Assembly (NCBI RefSeq): GCF_000004825.1
Contig: NW_008805086.1
Span: 965,410 to 1,029,409, forward strand
Length of the DNA: 64,000 nt
Reading direction: 5' to 3'
Source: Heterostelium pallidum
Taxonomy: Eukaryota
Below are positions 34,970 through 44,724 of the stretch, piece by piece (positions within the stretch are counted from its first letter, which is position 1; each line of letters opens with the position of its first letter). Under the pieces are notes generated by a model. It was not told the DNA's origin, did no database searches, and saw only the letters and a list, made by a program, of their open reading frames with translations. The position numbers and the translations under genes are program-made.

Positions 34970-35821
34970 TTTCTTTATTATTATCAAAATATATCTAAAC
35001 AAAAAGTTTTAACTCATTTTTTTGTTATTTTTTTTTCATTGCAACATTTTTTGTTAAAAAAAAATTACAATGATAATGGATAGTGGTGCAACATGTTCAA
35101 CAGCAATCAATAGTTGAATAAGAATATTTAGAGTGTCATCAATTGTTTAATAATGTATTACATTGTTCTAGTTTATTTTGATATTTGATGATGTAATACC
35201 GCGTTTTAGATATTTTTAGTCAACCTGGGTTGTTCCCAAAATCAAAAAAGAATTGTTCAAAAATACGACATGCAACAGAAAAAAAATCTTAAACCTCTAT
35301 CGAAAAGTTTGTCTCCCTTTTTTAATTTCGTTTTTAAAAAAAAAAACGGATCTTTGTTAATTTTATACCTTTTTTTTTTAATTACTTTTGTTTCAACATT
35401 TCAAATCTTATTATCAAAAATATTATATAATGATATATTAATATTTCAAATCGATATTAAATAACAATCTTAAATATTAGTTTGTTTTACTTTTTTTTTT
35501 TTTAAAATCAAAAATAAATAATATCTTTTTTTCTTCTTTTGTTGTTTTTTCCCATTGTATAGACACCATTTCACACCACACATCTCACCTTATTTATACT
35601 ATTTCTTAAGAACGACAAAGTACATACACATCACATACTCTTTTTATAATTTAGAGTAAATATAAAAATATAGTGTATTATTTAGTTATAGATACAGATA
35701 TATATATATATAAATAGTCTCTTTTTTTTTTTTTTTGTTTTTGTTTTTTTTATTTATAGTGTTTATATATTATTTTTTTTGTTTTGATCAATGACAAAAA
35801 AAGTTACCATTTCAGAATAGG

Positions 35822-38035
35822 GTGATCGTATTCACTTTTATAATCACAATTTTCACTATATTATCATCTATATACTTTATCAATGGAGGTATCGGTTTGA
35901 ATGGAAATGGCGTTGAATCAAACAACAATAATCAAAATGTCGAGGAAACTGCAAAGGATCTAATGGGTAGAAATTTAAATCAATTGCATCCATCGCTGAG
36001 GCTTCAGTTGGATGAGGAGGATCAGACTTTTCAACAGCTAGAGAATTTCAAACTCACTGGAAAAGACGAGCAACTTCAGTGGTCGACCGCTACATTTCAA
36101 AGGAAGCGTCGTGTTCTAATTGTCACCACTGAGATCGAGGGACCTGTACTCGGTGGAGGCATCGGAACTGCCTACACTGCATTGTCGCAACGACTCGCCG
36201 ACGATGGACACATCGTAACAGTGTTGGTAATCAACTACATCAAAAAGATGACTGCCACACACTGGCAGGAGTTGTATGCCACCAAGAAAATCACTATCGA
36301 ATTCCTCTCACCAGAGACTACCGACATCCTTGGATGCACCGGGCCATGCATTCGCAGTTACCACGCCTACAAATGGATTGCCGAGCGTGAGCATCTCTAC
36401 GATGTTCTTCACTTCCACGACAACGGTGGTATCGCCTATTTCTCTGCGTTGGCACGTAGCCAAGGAATTTCATTGCAAAAGTCAATCGTTGTCGTCGGTG
36501 GACATGGACCACATCTCTGGGAGAGAACTGCAAACTCTGCGAATCTCGACGACGGTAAACACTTTGAGGTAGATTACCTCGAGAAGCGTTCAGTGGAACT
36601 CTCCGACTGGCTGATATCGCCATCCAACTACATGCTAAACTGGATGCGTAGATCCGGTTGGGTTCTACCTAAAAACTCATATGTACACCAGAATCTTTTG
36701 CCAGGTACCATCATGTCGCAGCCAAGCGTCGATAAATTGATTGCACATTCATTCGATGAAATCATTTTCTTTGGTCGATTGGAGGCAAGAAAAGGACTCG
36801 ATATCTTCTTGAGAGCGTTGGATACACTACACAAGGAGTTGGACGAAGCCAATATCTTGGTTACATTTCTAGGTGCAAATACAAAGCTACCAGAGGTCAA
36901 TATGCTAGCGGATCAGTATATCGTTTCAAAGTGTCGTTTGTTGAATATGAATTGTCGGGTTTTGATTGGAAGAACTCATACCGAAGCAATCGCGTATCTC
37001 ACCGATCTATCGGATCGTAAGCTCGTCGTTATTCCATCGCCAATCGATAACTCACCCAACACAGTTTTGGAGTGTATGACACATAATCTAGCTTTCATTT
37101 CAACCAAAGTCGGTGGTATTCCAGAGTTGATCGATCCCAAAGATAGAGCACGTACTCTCTTTTCACCTGCACCAAACTCACTGATCCGAAAGATTCGTGA
37201 GTCCATCAGAGATGGTGTCTATCCAGCACGTATGGCCAAAGATGAATGGTTCAGACACAAGATTTGGAGCAATTGGCACTCCGTTGTACCAATACCTACA
37301 CAACAGCCACTCGTTACCAAACCCACCAATCTAGTGACTGTGGTACTCGTTCACAACGGCAACAACGACATTCAAGTGGAAACCAATCTAATGGCACTCG
37401 ACCAAAAGCAGAATCAATATCGTTTGGAGGTTGTAATTGCCACAGTTAGACCACTTCTCCAGATTCAAGAGTATCAATATATTAAAGTTAGTCAAGTCGA
37501 GATATCCGAATATCTCGTTTCACCAATCAATTTCCAGCCATGGAACAGTGAACCGATTGTCTCTTCATTCCATGGCGAATTCATTCTGTTTGTGGATCAA
37601 GAAGATTGGCTCAGCTCAAGGACACTCAATGAAATGTTGAATGTTGCCAAACATACCGGTGCACATATGGTATCGTCTTCGATTGGACATCCTGCCATGG
37701 GTGAAGATATCAGCTCTGTATATATGGGATGCATTGGAATGCCAGGAATGATGTACAACTGCTATGGTAGCAACAATGTACTGATGAACAAACTACTTTT
37801 ACATACAATCACTAAAAACTATACGAATGAAGAGATTGAAGATGAATTTGACTATGGTGGACCATGGGAGCTCTACTCTGAAGCAACCAACCGTGGATTC
37901 TCATTGGAAACCATTCCAAAAGCATTGTTTTTCACTTCAAGAACTGAAATCGATTTATCCAGTACTTATAATCAAGAATTAAGAGTTTTAAAATATTTCC
38001 AAGGTAAAAATTATTATTTAGCAAAACATTTATAA
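35822..38035 (+). CDS. Family GT4 (group-1) glycosyltransferase ORF with an N-terminal signal-anchor (type II membrane protein). The true start and end are uncertain, as described in findings.
   Basis: TM segment VIVFTFIITIFTILSSIYFI. Glyco_trans_4-like EIEGPVLGGGIGTAYTALSQRLADDGHIVTVLV and the Glycos_transf_1 motifs FFGRLEARKGLDIFLRAL ... LECMTHNLAFISTKVGGIPELI. A ~330-aa extra C-terminal domain follows. There is no in-frame ATG; an ATG at 35791 is +1 out of frame across an A7 run. Confidence 0.7.
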   Translation: MIVFTFIITIFTILSSIYFINGGIGLNGNGVESNNNNQNVEETAKDLMGRNLNQLHPSLRLQLDEEDQTFQQLENFKLTGKDEQLQWSTATFQRKRRVLIVTTEIEGPVLGGGIGTAYTALSQRLADDGHIVTVLVINYIKKMTATHWQELYATKKITIEFLSPETTDILGCTGPCIRSYHAYKWIAEREHLYDVLHFHDNGGIAYFSALARSQGISLQKSIVVVGGHGPHLWERTANSANLDDGKHFEVDYLEKRSVELSDWLISPSNYMLNWMRRSGWVLPKNSYVHQNLLPGTIMSQPSVDKLIAHSFDEIIFFGRLEARKGLDIFLRALDTLHKELDEANILVTFLGANTKLPEVNMLADQYIVSKCRLLNMNCRVLIGRTHTEAIAYLTDLSDRKLVVIPSPIDNSPNTVLECMTHNLAFISTKVGGIPELIDPKDRARTLFSPAPNSLIRKIRESIRDGVYPARMAKDEWFRHKIWSNWHSVVPIPTQQPLVTKPTNLVTVVLVHNGNNDIQVETNLMALDQKQNQYRLEVVIATVRPLLQIQEYQYIKVSQVEISEYLVSPINFQPWNSEPIVSSFHGEFILFVDQEDWLSSRTLNEMLNVAKHTGAHMVSSSIGHPAMGEDISSVYMGCIGMPGMMYNCYGSNNVLMNKLLLHTITKNYTNEEIEDEFDYGGPWELYSEATNRGFSLETIPKALFFTSRTEIDLSSTYNQELRVLKYFQGKNYYLAKHL

Positions 38036-38071
38036 AAGCAATAGTTTATTAACTTTTATTGTTATCAACAG

Positions 38072-39222
38072 CATTATTACCACCATCTTTAGGTATTTCA
38101 CCACTTGCAACAAGACATTTCCTAATATCAAAGGGTTACTATTTAAATGAAATCAATACACAGACACAAAAAGTTAAACAATTGGAAGGACAAGTGGCGA
38201 AATATCAAATCATTGAAAAGAGAGAGGAACAATTTTTTGATTTGAATGAAACTTCATCTCAAGAGAGTTCCTGTGTCGTTTCAAACTACATGGAATCCAG
38301 AAAGCATATTGGAATGGTTTTCATTCGTGGTCACGAGAAATCAGGTACCTCATGGTTGAAAAAAGTAGTTGGTCTTCATCCAAGAATCCAGTTGCACCAA
38401 CAGGAATTCCACTTCCATATCGTCGAGGATGCCATTGAAAAATTTACAGATCATCCATGGGCTGCAAGTAACGAGCCTTATGTTTCTTACACCCGTAAGT
38501 GGTACAAATCATTCGTACGTAATCTTTTATTGGCTGGAGTATCACCACCATCGGCATCGATCATCAACTATGTCGGTGAGAAGACACCATCACCATTGGC
38601 ACCGATTATCTCTGGTTCCAAATATATTCTAATCATTAGAGATGGTAGAGATGTTGTTGTATCACTCTTTTGGCATTATGTCAGACTCGGTGGATTCGAG
38701 AACTGGTGTGGTGGCTTCTCAAAGCAACTGGTTGAGCCAGGCTATGTGAGATCCTACAACCAGGATACCAGTTATTTCAAGAAGAATCCAGAACATTTGT
38801 TGGAAAAAGAAGTCTGCTTCCGACATGTCGTTAGAAGCTGGGCAAAGAGAATCAGAGAGGATCTCCAAACCATCGATGACCTCAAGAAAAACCCAGCTGC
38901 TGAAGTCTATGTTTTGCGTTACGAAGAGCTACACCGTGATACTGATGCCATAAGAACAGAGATGTATCAATTCCTCGGACTAGATCCAGCAGAAGCACAA
39001 GAGCTATCGGTCGAAGGCAAAACAATTGCTGGTGGCTTCCAGGAGGAGGGCGAAAAGAAAAACAAATTCTTTAGAAAAGGAGAGATTGGTGATTGGCAGA
39101 ATTACTTTAGTTATGCAAACAAAGTTTGGTTCAAAGAAGAGGCTGGACATGAACTCATCCAACTTGGTTATGAACTAGATCATCTTTGGGTAAAGAATAC
39201 CAAACTATCTCCTATTAAATAA
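38072..39222 (+). CDS. Sulfotransferase domain exon (cytosolic-sulfotransferase fold). It has no own ATG and is probably spliced onto the upstream glycosyltransferase exon through an intron at 38004..38071.
   Basis: 5'-PSB motif GHEKSGTSWL, 3'-PB motif IIRDGRDVVVS and RKGEIGDWQNYFS. The frame stays open for 77 codons upstream of the first ATG and reaches a TTATCAACAG acceptor that is in phase with a GTAAAA donor at 38004. Confidence 0.7.
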
Positions 39223-41456: not shown

Positions 41457-42875
41457 ATGGAAGATGTATACAATATTGAGAAGAGAAAACAAATATTTGA
41501 AGTTTTATCAAATAATTTAGAAATAAGATATTTAAAGTATATATGGGTGGATCTATCAAATTTTATTCATGTAAAAGTTATTAGAACCAAGTATTTATTG
41601 GAGCACCAATGCAAATATTTTTCGTTTGGTACCAACTTTCTGTTTTTGAGATGCTTTGACAATCTTTCCAATGTTATAATTCCACCAGAGGACAAAGAAA
41701 CTTACTTTGTTCCAGATTGGAATACATTCCATGTGAATTCTTATCAAAAGGGAATTGCAAGTGTGTTTGGTTCGATCTATAGAATGAAGAAAGTAGTTTT
41801 AGGAAATGGAAATTCGTTCATACAGTGTGAACCATATGAACACTGTCCAAGAAATATTTTAAAAAAAGCAGAGAATACACTGTCGGAAATTCATATTGAT
41901 GGTGAAACTGGTATCAGCTTGAAAGGTTCATTTGAAGAAGAGTTCTATTTATTACCATTGGATACACCAATACCTGAAGAGGCTAATTCCGAATTAATAC
42001 CTGGATACAGTTTATACCATGTGGATGATCACATAGAGATCCTAATTGATATGGCCAAACACTTGGAGGATCAAGGTGTGCCGAATGAACAGATTCTGCA
42101 TGAGGGTGCACCAAACCAATTTGAAATAACAGTGCCTTACACATCGATCATGGAAGCATGTGATCGTCATATCATTGTGAGAAGTACAGTTCATGCTATT
42201 GCCAAGAAACATGGATATCAAGCCACTTTTATTCCTAAACCATTTAAAAACGACCTTGGAACTGGTTGCCATGTTCATCTTTCTCTGTGGAACAAAGACA
42301 AGAATTTAGTACCAAATCTAACTCATTCAACTAATTTATCAAACATTGCAAGACGTGCGATCAGTGGTATATTGCATCATGCTAGAGGTCTAACTGCTAT
42401 TTTCAATGCGTCTGTAAACTCATATCAACGTTTGAAGCCTATGACCTGGTCTGGAGGTGCCATTTGCTGGGGTGTCAATAATAAGGAATCGATGATTCGT
42501 GTTCCACACAGTGCATACACATTCAGTAACTTTGAATTGAAATCATTGGATCATAGTGCCAATGTGTATGTGGCAATGGCAGCCACTATATATGCAATGG
42601 TTGATGGAATGATTAGTGATAGTATAAAGATGCTTCCTCCAATTACCAAATACCCGTGCCAATATACTGACAGTGAAAGAGATAACCTAGGAATAAGACA
42701 GTTTCCTAAAACTCTTGGAGAAGCAATCAAAGAACTTGGCTCAGATACCTTTTTGATCAAAATGATGGGTTCCGAATTTATAGAGACCTTTTGTGCTATC
42801 AGACAATTCGAACAAGATTTTCTTAAAGGCAAGAGTGATTATGAAATTATTAAACTCTATTACAAACTGTATTAA
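41457..42875 (+). CDS. Glutamine synthetase family protein (type-I-like glutamate-ammonia/amine ligase), paralogue 1 of 3, 472 aa.
   Basis: Beta-grasp N-terminal domain (IRYLKYIWVDLSN) and catalytic-domain motifs GSFEEEFYLL, HVHLSLWN, NSYQRLKP and NNKESMIRVP (GS 'NRSAxIRIP'). Confidence 0.8.
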   Translation: MEDVYNIEKRKQIFEVLSNNLEIRYLKYIWVDLSNFIHVKVIRTKYLLEHQCKYFSFGTNFLFLRCFDNLSNVIIPPEDKETYFVPDWNTFHVNSYQKGIASVFGSIYRMKKVVLGNGNSFIQCEPYEHCPRNILKKAENTLSEIHIDGETGISLKGSFEEEFYLLPLDTPIPEEANSELIPGYSLYHVDDHIEILIDMAKHLEDQGVPNEQILHEGAPNQFEITVPYTSIMEACDRHIIVRSTVHAIAKKHGYQATFIPKPFKNDLGTGCHVHLSLWNKDKNLVPNLTHSTNLSNIARRAISGILHHARGLTAIFNASVNSYQRLKPMTWSGGAICWGVNNKESMIRVPHSAYTFSNFELKSLDHSANVYVAMAATIYAMVDGMISDSIKMLPPITKYPCQYTDSERDNLGIRQFPKTLGEAIKELGSDTFLIKMMGSEFIETFCAIRQFEQDFLKGKSDYEIIKLYYKLY

Positions 42876-43302
42876 TAATAATAAAGGTAGATTTCTTGGT
42901 TCTAGAAAGAAAAAATAATTTTAAAAAAAAAATTTTTCATCAACAATTTTTTAAAAAAAAAAGGAATCATTATTTGAAAAGATGTTACTTTGTGTATTCA
43001 TAAATCTGAGACAAAAAAATTGGTGAAAAAGATCACTTTTCAGTTTTTTTTTTCTTGAACCAATCATAAATTAAATGGGCAGTTGAACAAAAATGAAAAT
43101 ATTTGTTTGTGTTTAGTTGTAAATTGGCATTGGTTGAAAAGATCCGGGAACCATGTTTTATTATTATAATCTATCTATTCGAGGTTTCTGCTTATTGTTC
43201 GTAAAGTTGAACAAAAGGTGTACCACAGACATATAAATAAGAAAATCAATCTACAACAATTTTAAATTACATAACTTTTTTAAATCAGTGTTTATTCAAC
43301 AA

Positions 43303-44724
43303 ATGGAAGAATTGAATAATGAAAAAAGAAAACAAATATTTGAATATTTATCAATACACACAGAAATTAGATATCTAAAATATATTTGGATTGATCTTTC
43401 CAATGTTATACACTCGAGAATCATCAGAACAAAATATTTGCTAGAAGAACGATGCCAGCACTTCCCTATTCTCATTACCTTCCTTTATTGGCGATGCTTC
43501 GACGGAAGAATAAGTCCAGCGGTTGATTATAAACTCGAAGAATCTGAAGCTTACTTTTTGCCAGATTGGGGAACATTCCAATTGGTTTCATATCAAGCAG
43601 AGACTGCACAGGTTTTTGGGTACATTTATCAAATTAAGAGAGTGGCTCAGCCTGATGGTGCTTTCAAGACTCACTATGATGCCGTGGATTGTTGTCCTAG
43701 AACCATGCTGAAGAATGCAGAGAAAATACTTTCGGAGATCCATATCGATGGTGCAACTGGTATCAGCTTGAAAGGTTCCTTCGAAGAAGAATTCTATCTA
43801 CTTCCTTTTGGTACGTCATTGCCTGAAGATTCTAGTTATGAATACAGACCATGCTTTAGCCTTTATCATACAGATGAATACTTTGAGATTCTAACTGACA
43901 TTGAGAAACACTTGGAGGCTCAGGGTGTGCCAAATGAACAGATTATGACCGAAGGTGGACCAAACCAATTTGAAATAACAGTGCCTTACACATCGATCAT
44001 GGAAGCATGTGATCGTCATATTATCATCAGAAGTACAGTTCATGCAATTTCCAAGAAACATGGATATCAAGCCACTTTTATTCCCAAACCTTACAAGAGT
44101 TACCCTGGAACTGGTTGTCATGTTCACCTTTCTCTGTGGAACAGAACCAATAATTTAGTTCCAAATCTCAGTCATCCAAATGGTCTGTCAAACATTGCAA
44201 GACGTGCGATCAGTGGTATATTGCATCATGCCAGTGGTCTGGCTGCTATTTTCAATCCAAATGTAAACTCATATCAACGTTTGAAACCATTGACTATTTC
44301 AGGTAATTTTATATGCTGGGGTATCGGTAATAAGGAAGCGATGATTCGAGTTCCACCATGTTCTTATACATTCAGTAACTTTGAATTGAAATCAATGGAT
44401 CATAGTGCCAACCCGTATTTGGCATTAGCTGCAACTATCTATGCAATGGTCGATGGAATGATTAGTGATAATATTAGGATACTTCCCAACATTCCAACAT
44501 TTCCAACACTCTACACCGAAATAGAAAAAGAGGAACTGGGCATTAGAGAAAATCCTAGATCTCTTGACGAAGCAATCAAAGAACTTAGATCAGATACCTT
44601 TTTGATCAACATGATGGGTTCTGAATTTATCAAGAACTTTTGTGCTATTAGACAGTTCGAACAAGATTTTCTTAGTGGCAAAACTAATCATGAAACCGCC
44701 AAACTCTATTACAAATTGTATTAA
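43303..44724 (+). CDS. Glutamine synthetase family protein, paralogue 2 of 3. The start is taken at ATG 43303 (MEELNNEKRKQ), not at the GTG at 43288.
   Basis: About 75% amino-acid identity to paralogue 1, with the same motifs. Stretches are identical at nucleotide level (for example 'ccaaaccaatttgaaataacagtgccttacacatcgatcatggaagcatgtgatcgtcatat'). Confidence 0.8.
   Translation: MEELNNEKRKQIFEYLSIHTEIRYLKYIWIDLSNVIHSRIIRTKYLLEERCQHFPILITFLYWRCFDGRISPAVDYKLEESEAYFLPDWGTFQLVSYQAETAQVFGYIYQIKRVAQPDGAFKTHYDAVDCCPRTMLKNAEKILSEIHIDGATGISLKGSFEEEFYLLPFGTSLPEDSSYEYRPCFSLYHTDEYFEILTDIEKHLEAQGVPNEQIMTEGGPNQFEITVPYTSIMEACDRHIIIRSTVHAISKKHGYQATFIPKPYKSYPGTGCHVHLSLWNRTNNLVPNLSHPNGLSNIARRAISGILHHASGLAAIFNPNVNSYQRLKPLTISGNFICWGIGNKEAMIRVPPCSYTFSNFELKSMDHSANPYLALAATIYAMVDGMISDNIRILPNIPTFPTLYTEIEKEELGIRENPRSLDEAIKELRSDTFLINMMGSEFIKNFCAIRQFEQDFLSGKTNHETAKLYYKLY

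Follow-up and report, generated by a model that had tools for sequence, protein, structure and literature searches.

Tyrosylprotein sulfotransferases (TPSTs) are type-II Golgi proteins, and sulfotransferases of the SULT1/2 group are soluble single-domain proteins. Bacterial polysaccharide and O-antigen loci contain glycosyltransferases (GTs) with collinear GT4 and GT2 domains, among which we found no biochemically characterized member. Successive glycan activities are combined in one chain in NDST (deacetylase and sulfotransferase) and in polymerase-coiled-coil-terminator proteins of the WbbB/WbdD type. In WbbB of Aeromonas salmonicida, for example, a terminator module is combined with GT1 and GT2 modules (PMC4483657). 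The only characterized sulfotransferase of Dictyostelium is Kil1 (DDB_G0267630). Other putative Dictyostelium sulfotransferases exist besides Kil1, "e.g. gtr1" (PMC3534706; PMC4291096). The sulfated glycoprotein seen by one mannose-6-sulfate antibody is all lost in the D. discoideum kil1 knockout (PMC3534706). Searches of the literature, PDB and NCBIfam returned no characterized fusion of a GT with a sulfotransferase. A literature search on P. pallidum together with sulfotransferase, on gtr1 and on characterized fusions of this kind gave only one relevant sentence (in PMC3534706). The current work concerns a gene predicted to encode such a fusion. It is located on the + strand of a 64,000-nucleotide stretch of Heterostelium pallidum DNA (NCBI RefSeq assembly GCF_000004825.1, contig NW_008805086.1, positions 965,410 to 1,029,409). 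The whole stretch is called the window, and all positions below are counted from its first letter unless another locus is named.

We regard it as very likely that one gene encodes a membrane-anchored protein composed of a GT4 domain, a GT-A-like domain, a helix and a sulfotransferase domain, and that this enzyme would couple glycosylation to sulfation.

Gene structure and splice junction

Two open reading frames (ORFs) lie on the + strand with a gap of 24 nt between them: a GT ORF of 737 codons (35822-38035, frame 2) and a sulfotransferase ORF of 387 codons (38059-39222). The latter lacks an ATG in its first 77 codons; the first one is codon 78 (NYMESRK, 38290). An earlier note on this DNA, made from the letters alone, proposed that splicing joins the two ORFs, and its ORFs, its motifs, its donor GTAAAA at 38004, its acceptor AG at 38070-71 and its stop codon TAA at 38033 are all present where it placed them. 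The putative spliceosomal intron (38004-38071, phase 1, GTAAAA...AACAG) is 68 nt long, with the donor G/GTAAAA at 38004, the acceptor ...ATCAACAG ending at 38071 and an in-frame TAA at 38033-38035. Joining 38003 to 38072 results in a single continuous frame of 3333 nt. Its main coding exon (35822-38003) belongs to a frame that is open just past the TGA at 35792-35794 and breaks off after the first base of a split codon, and the second coding exon (38072-39222) ends with the stop codon 39220-39222. The intron has GT..AG ends, keeps the frame, is poor in GC (17.6% versus 40-50% in the adjoining exons) and shares its position with orthologous introns. In the region as a whole, coding blocks of 40-55% GC are separated by stretches of 10-25% GC. 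One detail of the earlier note needs correction: the donor does not precede the stop by nine codons but splits the tenth codon before it.

The fused gene model is not new; the coding sequence has been in GenBank since the genome annotation. Over 100% of its length, the whole main coding exon included, the spliced query is 100% identical to the protein P0001, listed as "putative glycosyltransferase [Heterostelium album PN500]" (1128 aa), and hence the GenBank model already uses exactly the 38003/38072 splice. H. album was formerly named Polysphondylium pallidum.

Orthologues in which Pfam detects the same GT4 and sulfotransferase families were found in Tieghemostelium lacteum, Polysphondylium violaceum, Dictyostelium purpureum, D. 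discoideum, Cavenderia fasciculata and Synstelium polycarpum; their identity to the H. album protein is 47-57%. The search for the same domain order in other dictyostelids, suggested by the earlier note, was thus successful. For a comparison of introns, the orthologous proteins were mapped onto their own genomic loci. One intron of about 63-87 nt, in phase 1 and at the homologous codon (after F-D/E), interrupts the gene in D. discoideum, P. violaceum, D. purpureum and C. fasciculata. The whole gene of T. lacteum is an uninterrupted ORF of 1151 codons and 3456 nt without an intron (L007 1501-4956). The same position and phase in four species, with absence in one, is more than chance would give. 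The single-exon gene of T. lacteum looks like a lineage-specific loss of the otherwise conserved phase-1 intron. An uninterrupted ORF was also found for a Polysphondylium-like orthologue (P0005) on contigs of about 3.7 kb from eight JGI/Logan samples. These contigs are most simply taken as spliced transcripts, with intron loss as an alternative. The annotated C. fasciculata orthologue (871 aa; L009 2212-4500, GL883006.1) is short at the N-terminus; tblastn finds H. album residues 69-746 in one frame, extending about 800 nt upstream beyond the annotated start, and the missing GT4 half is therefore encoded.

Homology also crosses the junction itself. A BLASTP alignment of P0001 with the single-ORF Myxococcales protein P0014 covers residues 115-752 (32% identity, E 1e-102) and spans the junction at 745/746. 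The first 45 of the ATG-less codons that follow the acceptor are conserved as protein: 19-26 of 45 residues (42-58%) are identical to those of dictyostelid orthologues, and the ATRHF core is invariant.

These data bear on the possibility that the locus makes two products, a GT-only protein ending at the TAA 38033 and a sulfotransferase transcribed separately from the ATG 38290. This start would lie 12 residues ahead of the 5'-phosphosulfate-binding (PSB) motif, the sulfotransferase family occurs most commonly as stand-alone proteins of 280-415 aa, and there is a stop codon in frame within the intron. However, all 77 codons upstream of that ATG are open, the methionine itself is not kept in most orthologues, and the conserved intron position, the single ORF of T. 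lacteum and the bacterial homology over the junction all speak for one chain. The stop is uninformative, since all four orthologous AT-rich introns hold in-frame stops as well. For the same reason it carries no isoform signal, and the GT-only isoform that the earlier note derived from it finds no support. We consider two products extremely improbable; the comparative evidence leaves little room for two separate genes. Judging by this comparison, the two ORFs are exons of one gene. The conserved intron, the T. lacteum ORF and P0001 together support the product that the earlier note predicted, a membrane-anchored protein of about 1120 aa with GT4, a middle domain, a helical linker and a sulfotransferase.

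The 5' end is less certain. The earlier note placed the start at the ATG 35791-35793, but this codon lies in frame 1, where only MTKKVTISE precedes the TAG at 35818-35820. It is therefore out of frame with the GT ORF (frame 2), and that frame has no ATG ahead of the membrane anchor. The predicted signal-anchor is the N-terminal hydrophobic segment VIVFTFIITIFTILSSIYFI (35822-35881; mean Kyte-Doolittle hydropathy over 19 residues about 2.0), and orthologues have an equivalent segment. A run of seven A (35796-35802) lies just downstream of the ATG. With one A fewer, the ATG 35791 would be in frame and give MTKKLPFQNRVIVFTF..., which resembles the short basic tail and anchor of the orthologues. 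A single exon holds the ATG, the short basic tail and the anchor in D. discoideum, P. violaceum, D. purpureum and T. lacteum. The GenBank model instead uses 5' exons (35070-35821) with an ATG at 35070, an apparent GC donor and a micro-exon of 10% GC near 35656, and its start is only 68 nt from a divergent PfkB gene. These exons are doubtful, and by the comparison with orthologues a homopolymer assembly error at the A7 run seems likelier. A 13-nt GT..AG "intron" (35803-35815), which would also bring the ATG 35791 in frame, was rejected because it is far below spliceosomal length.

Domains of the predicted product

The GT4 domain (GT-B fold; 36110-37267) is supported by Pfam, by homology to P0014 and by near-invariant columns. 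The GT ORF scores 33.0 bits for Glyco_transf_4, 47.6 for Glycos_transf_1 and 51.1 for Glyco_trans_1_4 (cut-offs 28.5, 26.4 and 27, respectively). NCBIfam gave generic GT4 matches only, all of them sub-threshold. The motifs are GPVLGGGIGTAY (36140-36175), HFHDNGG (36410-36430), GHGPHLW (36500-36520), FFGRLEARKG (36767-36796), DNSPNTVLE (37046-37072) and VGGIPELI (37109-37132). In an alignment of 74 sequences the patterns GPxxGGIGT, HFHD, GHGPHLW, FFGRLExRKG, xNSPxTVLEC and GGIPE are near-invariant from amoebae to bacteria. The GT4 motif set (the Gly-rich loop, the R/K pair of GRLxxxKG and GGxPE) is present, with the first glutamate of EX7E as the sole exception. The motif conservation suggests that the GT4 domain is probably catalytically active.

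The next part (37268-38002), described in the earlier note as an unknown domain of about 330 aa, is instead a GT2-like domain of about 245 aa with a GT-A Rossmann-like fold. In GT-A enzymes, DD, DxD and ED are the nucleotide-binding, metal-binding and catalytic-base motifs. All 12 eukaryotic members depart from the bacterial consensus at each of them. The DD positions (EVvLVDdGS in bacteria) are non-acidic. Only the first Asp of the DxD (bacterial lLFmDDDn) is kept, and a pattern FxDxxD remains. The ED of bacterial eDWEff is replaced by GP, GV, GT or similar pairs in GPWELY-like sequences. In the window, EVVIATV (37427-37447) stands in place of EVVLVDDGS, FVDQED (37589-37606) in place of FMDDDN and GGPWELY (37856-37876) in place of EDWEFF. 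Pfam finds no family in the isolated domain at E <= 1, PF00535 included; the bacterial P0014 passes PF00535 at 95.6 bits. Such replacements make it fairly probable that the GT2-like domain is inactive. With DD, most of DxD and ED lost, it is probably a scaffold or an acceptor-binding module, and it would be an example of a GT-A domain retained as a probable pseudoenzyme.

The second exon encodes a single helix of 45 residues (LATRHFLISK... to ...EEQFF; 38101-38235), a variable low-confidence linker up to about 38270, and the sulfotransferase domain. An AlphaFold2 (AF2) model of the exon-2 product has a predicted local distance difference test score (pLDDT) of 83.6 and shows the helix (residues 10-54), a disordered linker (residues 54-66 below 50) and a sulfotransferase fold.

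The sulfotransferase domain (38305-39219) is of the type that uses 3'-phosphoadenosine-5'-phosphosulfate (PAPS), as indicated by Pfam, invariant columns, profile matches in PDB and Foldseek. The ORF scores 63.9 bits for Sulfotransfer_1 (PF00685; E 2e-17, cut-off 22), and Sulfotransfer_3 is also above its cut-off. The motifs are the 5'-PSB GHEKSGTSWL (38329-38358), QQEFHFH with an invariant Glu (38398-38418), GEKTPSP (38575-38595), the 3'-phosphate-binding motif RDGRDVVVS (38638-38664) and RKGEIGDWQNYF (39073-39108). Ten eukaryotic orthologues share 90-odd invariant positions in this domain, including GHEKSGT-W, one Glu, GEK-P, RDGRDV--S and FFRKG--GDW. In the alignment, the invariant Glu (domain E39) is one residue off the position of the EE pair of TPST; it is a putative catalytic base. 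The earlier note asked whether both active sites of the spliced product are intact. In the modeled exon-2 product the PAPS site looks intact, judging by its motifs; the GT4 site deviates at the first position of EX7E, which is Asp. We think it very probable, given these conserved residues, that the sulfotransferase domain is active.

The loss of acidic motifs from the GT2-like domain could be seen as a part of a wider decay, in which the GT4 domain, the sulfotransferase domain or both are also pseudoenzymes. A homologue from Ceratiomyxa fruticulosa, the EukProt transcript P0010, has the same domain order at 31% identity and fits such a scenario: it lacks the PSB motif, and Pfam misses its sulfotransferase. 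But the GT4 and sulfotransferase motifs do not vary within Dictyostelia, and the identity among orthologues is 62-69% in the sulfotransferase domain and far lower in the linker, a sign of purifying selection on the catalytic residues. We consider a degenerating fusion very unlikely. In P0010 the 5'-PSB is replaced (ARAYEETG...), and the sulfotransferase is no longer detected by Pfam; from its sequence, the C-terminal domain of the Ceratiomyxa protein looks like it is decaying.

The nearest sulfotransferase structures do not reveal the acceptor. A profile of the N-terminal half matches TPST1/2 in PDB (E 5e-6) with PSB, NKDP/EKTP and RDGR..S aligned, and a profile of the C-terminal half matches cytosolic SULTs (E 1.5e-10) via the RKGxxGDW region. 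Foldseek places TPSTs on top by TM-score (TMt 0.55-0.66), followed by SULTs; phmmer with the full protein against PDB gave only one marginal match, SULT1B1. One could suppose from these matches that the fusion is real but that the substrate of its C-terminal domain is protein tyrosine or a small molecule, not the glycan of the GT4 domain. Yet the identity to TPST is only 14-16%, the domain is joined to GTs in several independent architectures, and its bacterial relatives occur in polysaccharide clusters. We regard a tyrosine or small-molecule acceptor as rather unlikely.

Related proteins, genomic surroundings and proposed function

About 1,800 proteins, mostly bacterial, share the GT4-GT2 core, and on the alignments this core is homologous to bacterial two-domain polysaccharide GTs. 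The proteins P0011 and P0012 from JGI samples have the same domain order as the H. album protein and are labeled in IMG as O-antigen or cell-wall enzymes. P0011 (L010 10001-13498, JGI 3300056625) is encoded on a 489-kb high-GC contig under the prokaryote-style label "glycosyltransferase involved in cell wall biosynthesis". The contig is eukaryotic, as its neighboring genes encode a MyTH4-FERM myosin, ANAPC8 and a Sac/synaptojanin domain (Syja_N). P0011 itself has the GT4, GT2-like, coil and sulfotransferase parts, and its coiled region is far longer.

The bacterial P0120 (1168 aa) has an N-terminal Sulfotransfer_3, a helical or coil region, GT4 and GT2, in that order. Its locus (L011 2383-13007, ENA ERZ505138 NODE_28) contains Wzm/Wzt ABC-2 genes, two stand-alone sulfotransferases, a methyltransferase and GT4 genes, and its gene content makes it a candidate for a sulfated O-polysaccharide system in which the domains are ordered differently. 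An exhaustive HMMER scan with the sulfotransferase domain returned 1,790 relatives, mostly stand-alone proteins of 270-430 aa. Independent GT4-sulfotransferase fusions occur among the metagenomic relatives (P0169, P0196, P0215 and P0282). Several environmental proteins (P0221, P0234 and P0265) join the same sulfotransferase family to class-III aminotransferase or radical-SAM domains. The predicted architecture, as far as sequences tell, is recurrent. The author of the earlier note knew of no such fusion in a characterized family, and we also found no characterized example; as a prediction, however, the fusion had already been annotated, and it recurs in metagenomic proteins.

Unrelated eukaryotic genes of ordinary kinds flank the gene in the window: a CBM49 protein, D123, a PfkB kinase (minus strand), an ORF without assignment and two glutamine synthetases. 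There is no functional cluster around the fusion gene. The glutamine synthetases are tandem + strand ORFs (41457-42875 and 43288-44724) with catalytic domains detected at E 3e-83 and 7e-79; they represent a local gene duplication.

We propose that the enzyme of about 1120 aa would be anchored by its N-terminal signal-anchor, with the short basic tail in the cytosol and the catalytic domains in the lumen of the Golgi or endoplasmic reticulum. The GT4 domain would move a sugar from a nucleotide sugar onto a glycan acceptor, and the C-terminal PAPS-dependent domain would sulfate the same or a neighboring glycan. The GT-A domain and the helix may serve as scaffold and spacer. Glycosylation and sulfation would thereby be coupled within one polypeptide. 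We infer both the Golgi location and the sequence of events suggested earlier, sugar addition and then sulfation. A glycan acceptor rather than a protein one is somewhat favored by two observations, the position of P0120 in a Wzm/Wzt polysaccharide cluster and the recurrent GT4-sulfotransferase fusions in the sulfotransferase family.

Topology is the part of this proposal with the strongest competitor. The fusion may be real while its catalytic domains are cytosolic and, as in the bacterial homologues, use an acceptor that is either lipid-linked or itself cytosolic. The bacterial homologues of the core are cytoplasmic enzymes, RKGxxGDW is a motif typical of cytosolic SULTs, and the GT4 enzymes ALG2, ALG11 and PIG-A of CAZy, as well as bacterial undecaprenyl-diphosphate-linked synthesis, work on the cytosolic face. 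On the other hand, all orthologues have basic residues before the hydrophobic segment, which by the positive-inside rule favors type-II orientation. The 10-12 Cys residues and 2-9 N-X-S/T sequons of each orthologue also point to the lumen but are weak evidence of topology. Altogether, these features make lumenal catalytic domains likely and cytosolic ones unlikely, although less so than the other alternatives considered above.

Several further points weigh against the anchored lumenal enzyme. Characterized eukaryotic GT4s and the bacterial homologues act on the cytosolic face of membranes, and PAPS is made in the cytosol, which would fit a cytosolic orientation. The first Glu of EX7E is Asp in all dictyostelids (DNSPNTVLE) versus Glu in bacteria (ENSPYTVLE). 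Among solved structures, the folds nearest to the sulfotransferase domain belong to enzymes that sulfate protein tyrosines and small molecules, and not to carbohydrate sulfotransferases. The kil1 knockout removes the mannose-6-sulfate epitope, so that any product of the fusion enzyme must be a different epitope. Finally, the searched protein collection contains no transcript-derived protein of H. album, and the exact spliced junction (a 26-mer) has 0 matches in metagenome_contigs.

If both end domains are active, the protein would be an experimentally tractable case of hard-wired glycosylation and sulfation, and D. discoideum, a species well suited to genetics, has an orthologue. The protein is also a candidate for a second sulfation pathway of social amoebae, beside Kil1.

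Comparison with known systems

Kil1 is a sulfotransferase from the same group of organisms. The gene gtr1 may correspond to P0008, the D. discoideum orthologue of the fusion, although nothing but its name suggests this.

TPST1/2 (PDB 5wri, 3ap1 and 8w5z) have the nearest solved fold to the amoebal sulfotransferase domain, with aligned PSB, NKDP/EKTP lysine and RDGR..S. In contrast to TPSTs, the amoebal domain carries a SULT-type RKGxxGDW in its C-terminal half and is fused to a GT. With SULT1/2 the similarity is in the C-terminal PAPS-binding region, including FRKGxxGDWKNYFT. The position of what we take to be the catalytic His of SULTs (KTHLP) apparently reads KTP in the amoebal domain. Furthermore, the amoebal protein is membrane-anchored and multidomain, unlike SULTs.

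With NDST and the WbbB/WbdD-type proteins the likeness is conceptual only. Compared with the latter, the amoebal helix has only about 45 residues, and coupling to an ABC transporter is absent in the eukaryote.

The bacterial GT4-GT2 enzymes of polysaccharide and O-antigen loci (P0014 and P0120) are collinear with the amoebal GT4 and GT-A domains at 30-32% identity over about 640 residues. The alignment includes the helix after the GT-A domain, and the GT4 motifs are common to both sides except for the first Glu of EX7E. The bacterial proteins keep DDGS, DDD and ED and pass PF00535, whereas the amoebal domain does neither. Most of them have no sulfotransferase, and the Sulfotransfer_3 of P0120 is N-terminal while the amoebal sulfotransferase is C-terminal. 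A speculative and on balance unlikely reading of this relationship is that a module of bacterial polysaccharide synthases, made up of GT4-GT2, a helical spacer and a domain that modifies the chain end, moved to the secretory pathway of Amoebozoa, where it would build and sulfate an undescribed Kil1-independent glycan. If so, no enzyme that couples glycosyl transfer with sulfation in one chain would have been known before it. The comparison as such ties a putative eukaryotic secretory-pathway enzyme to bacterial GT4-GT2 polysaccharide synthases.

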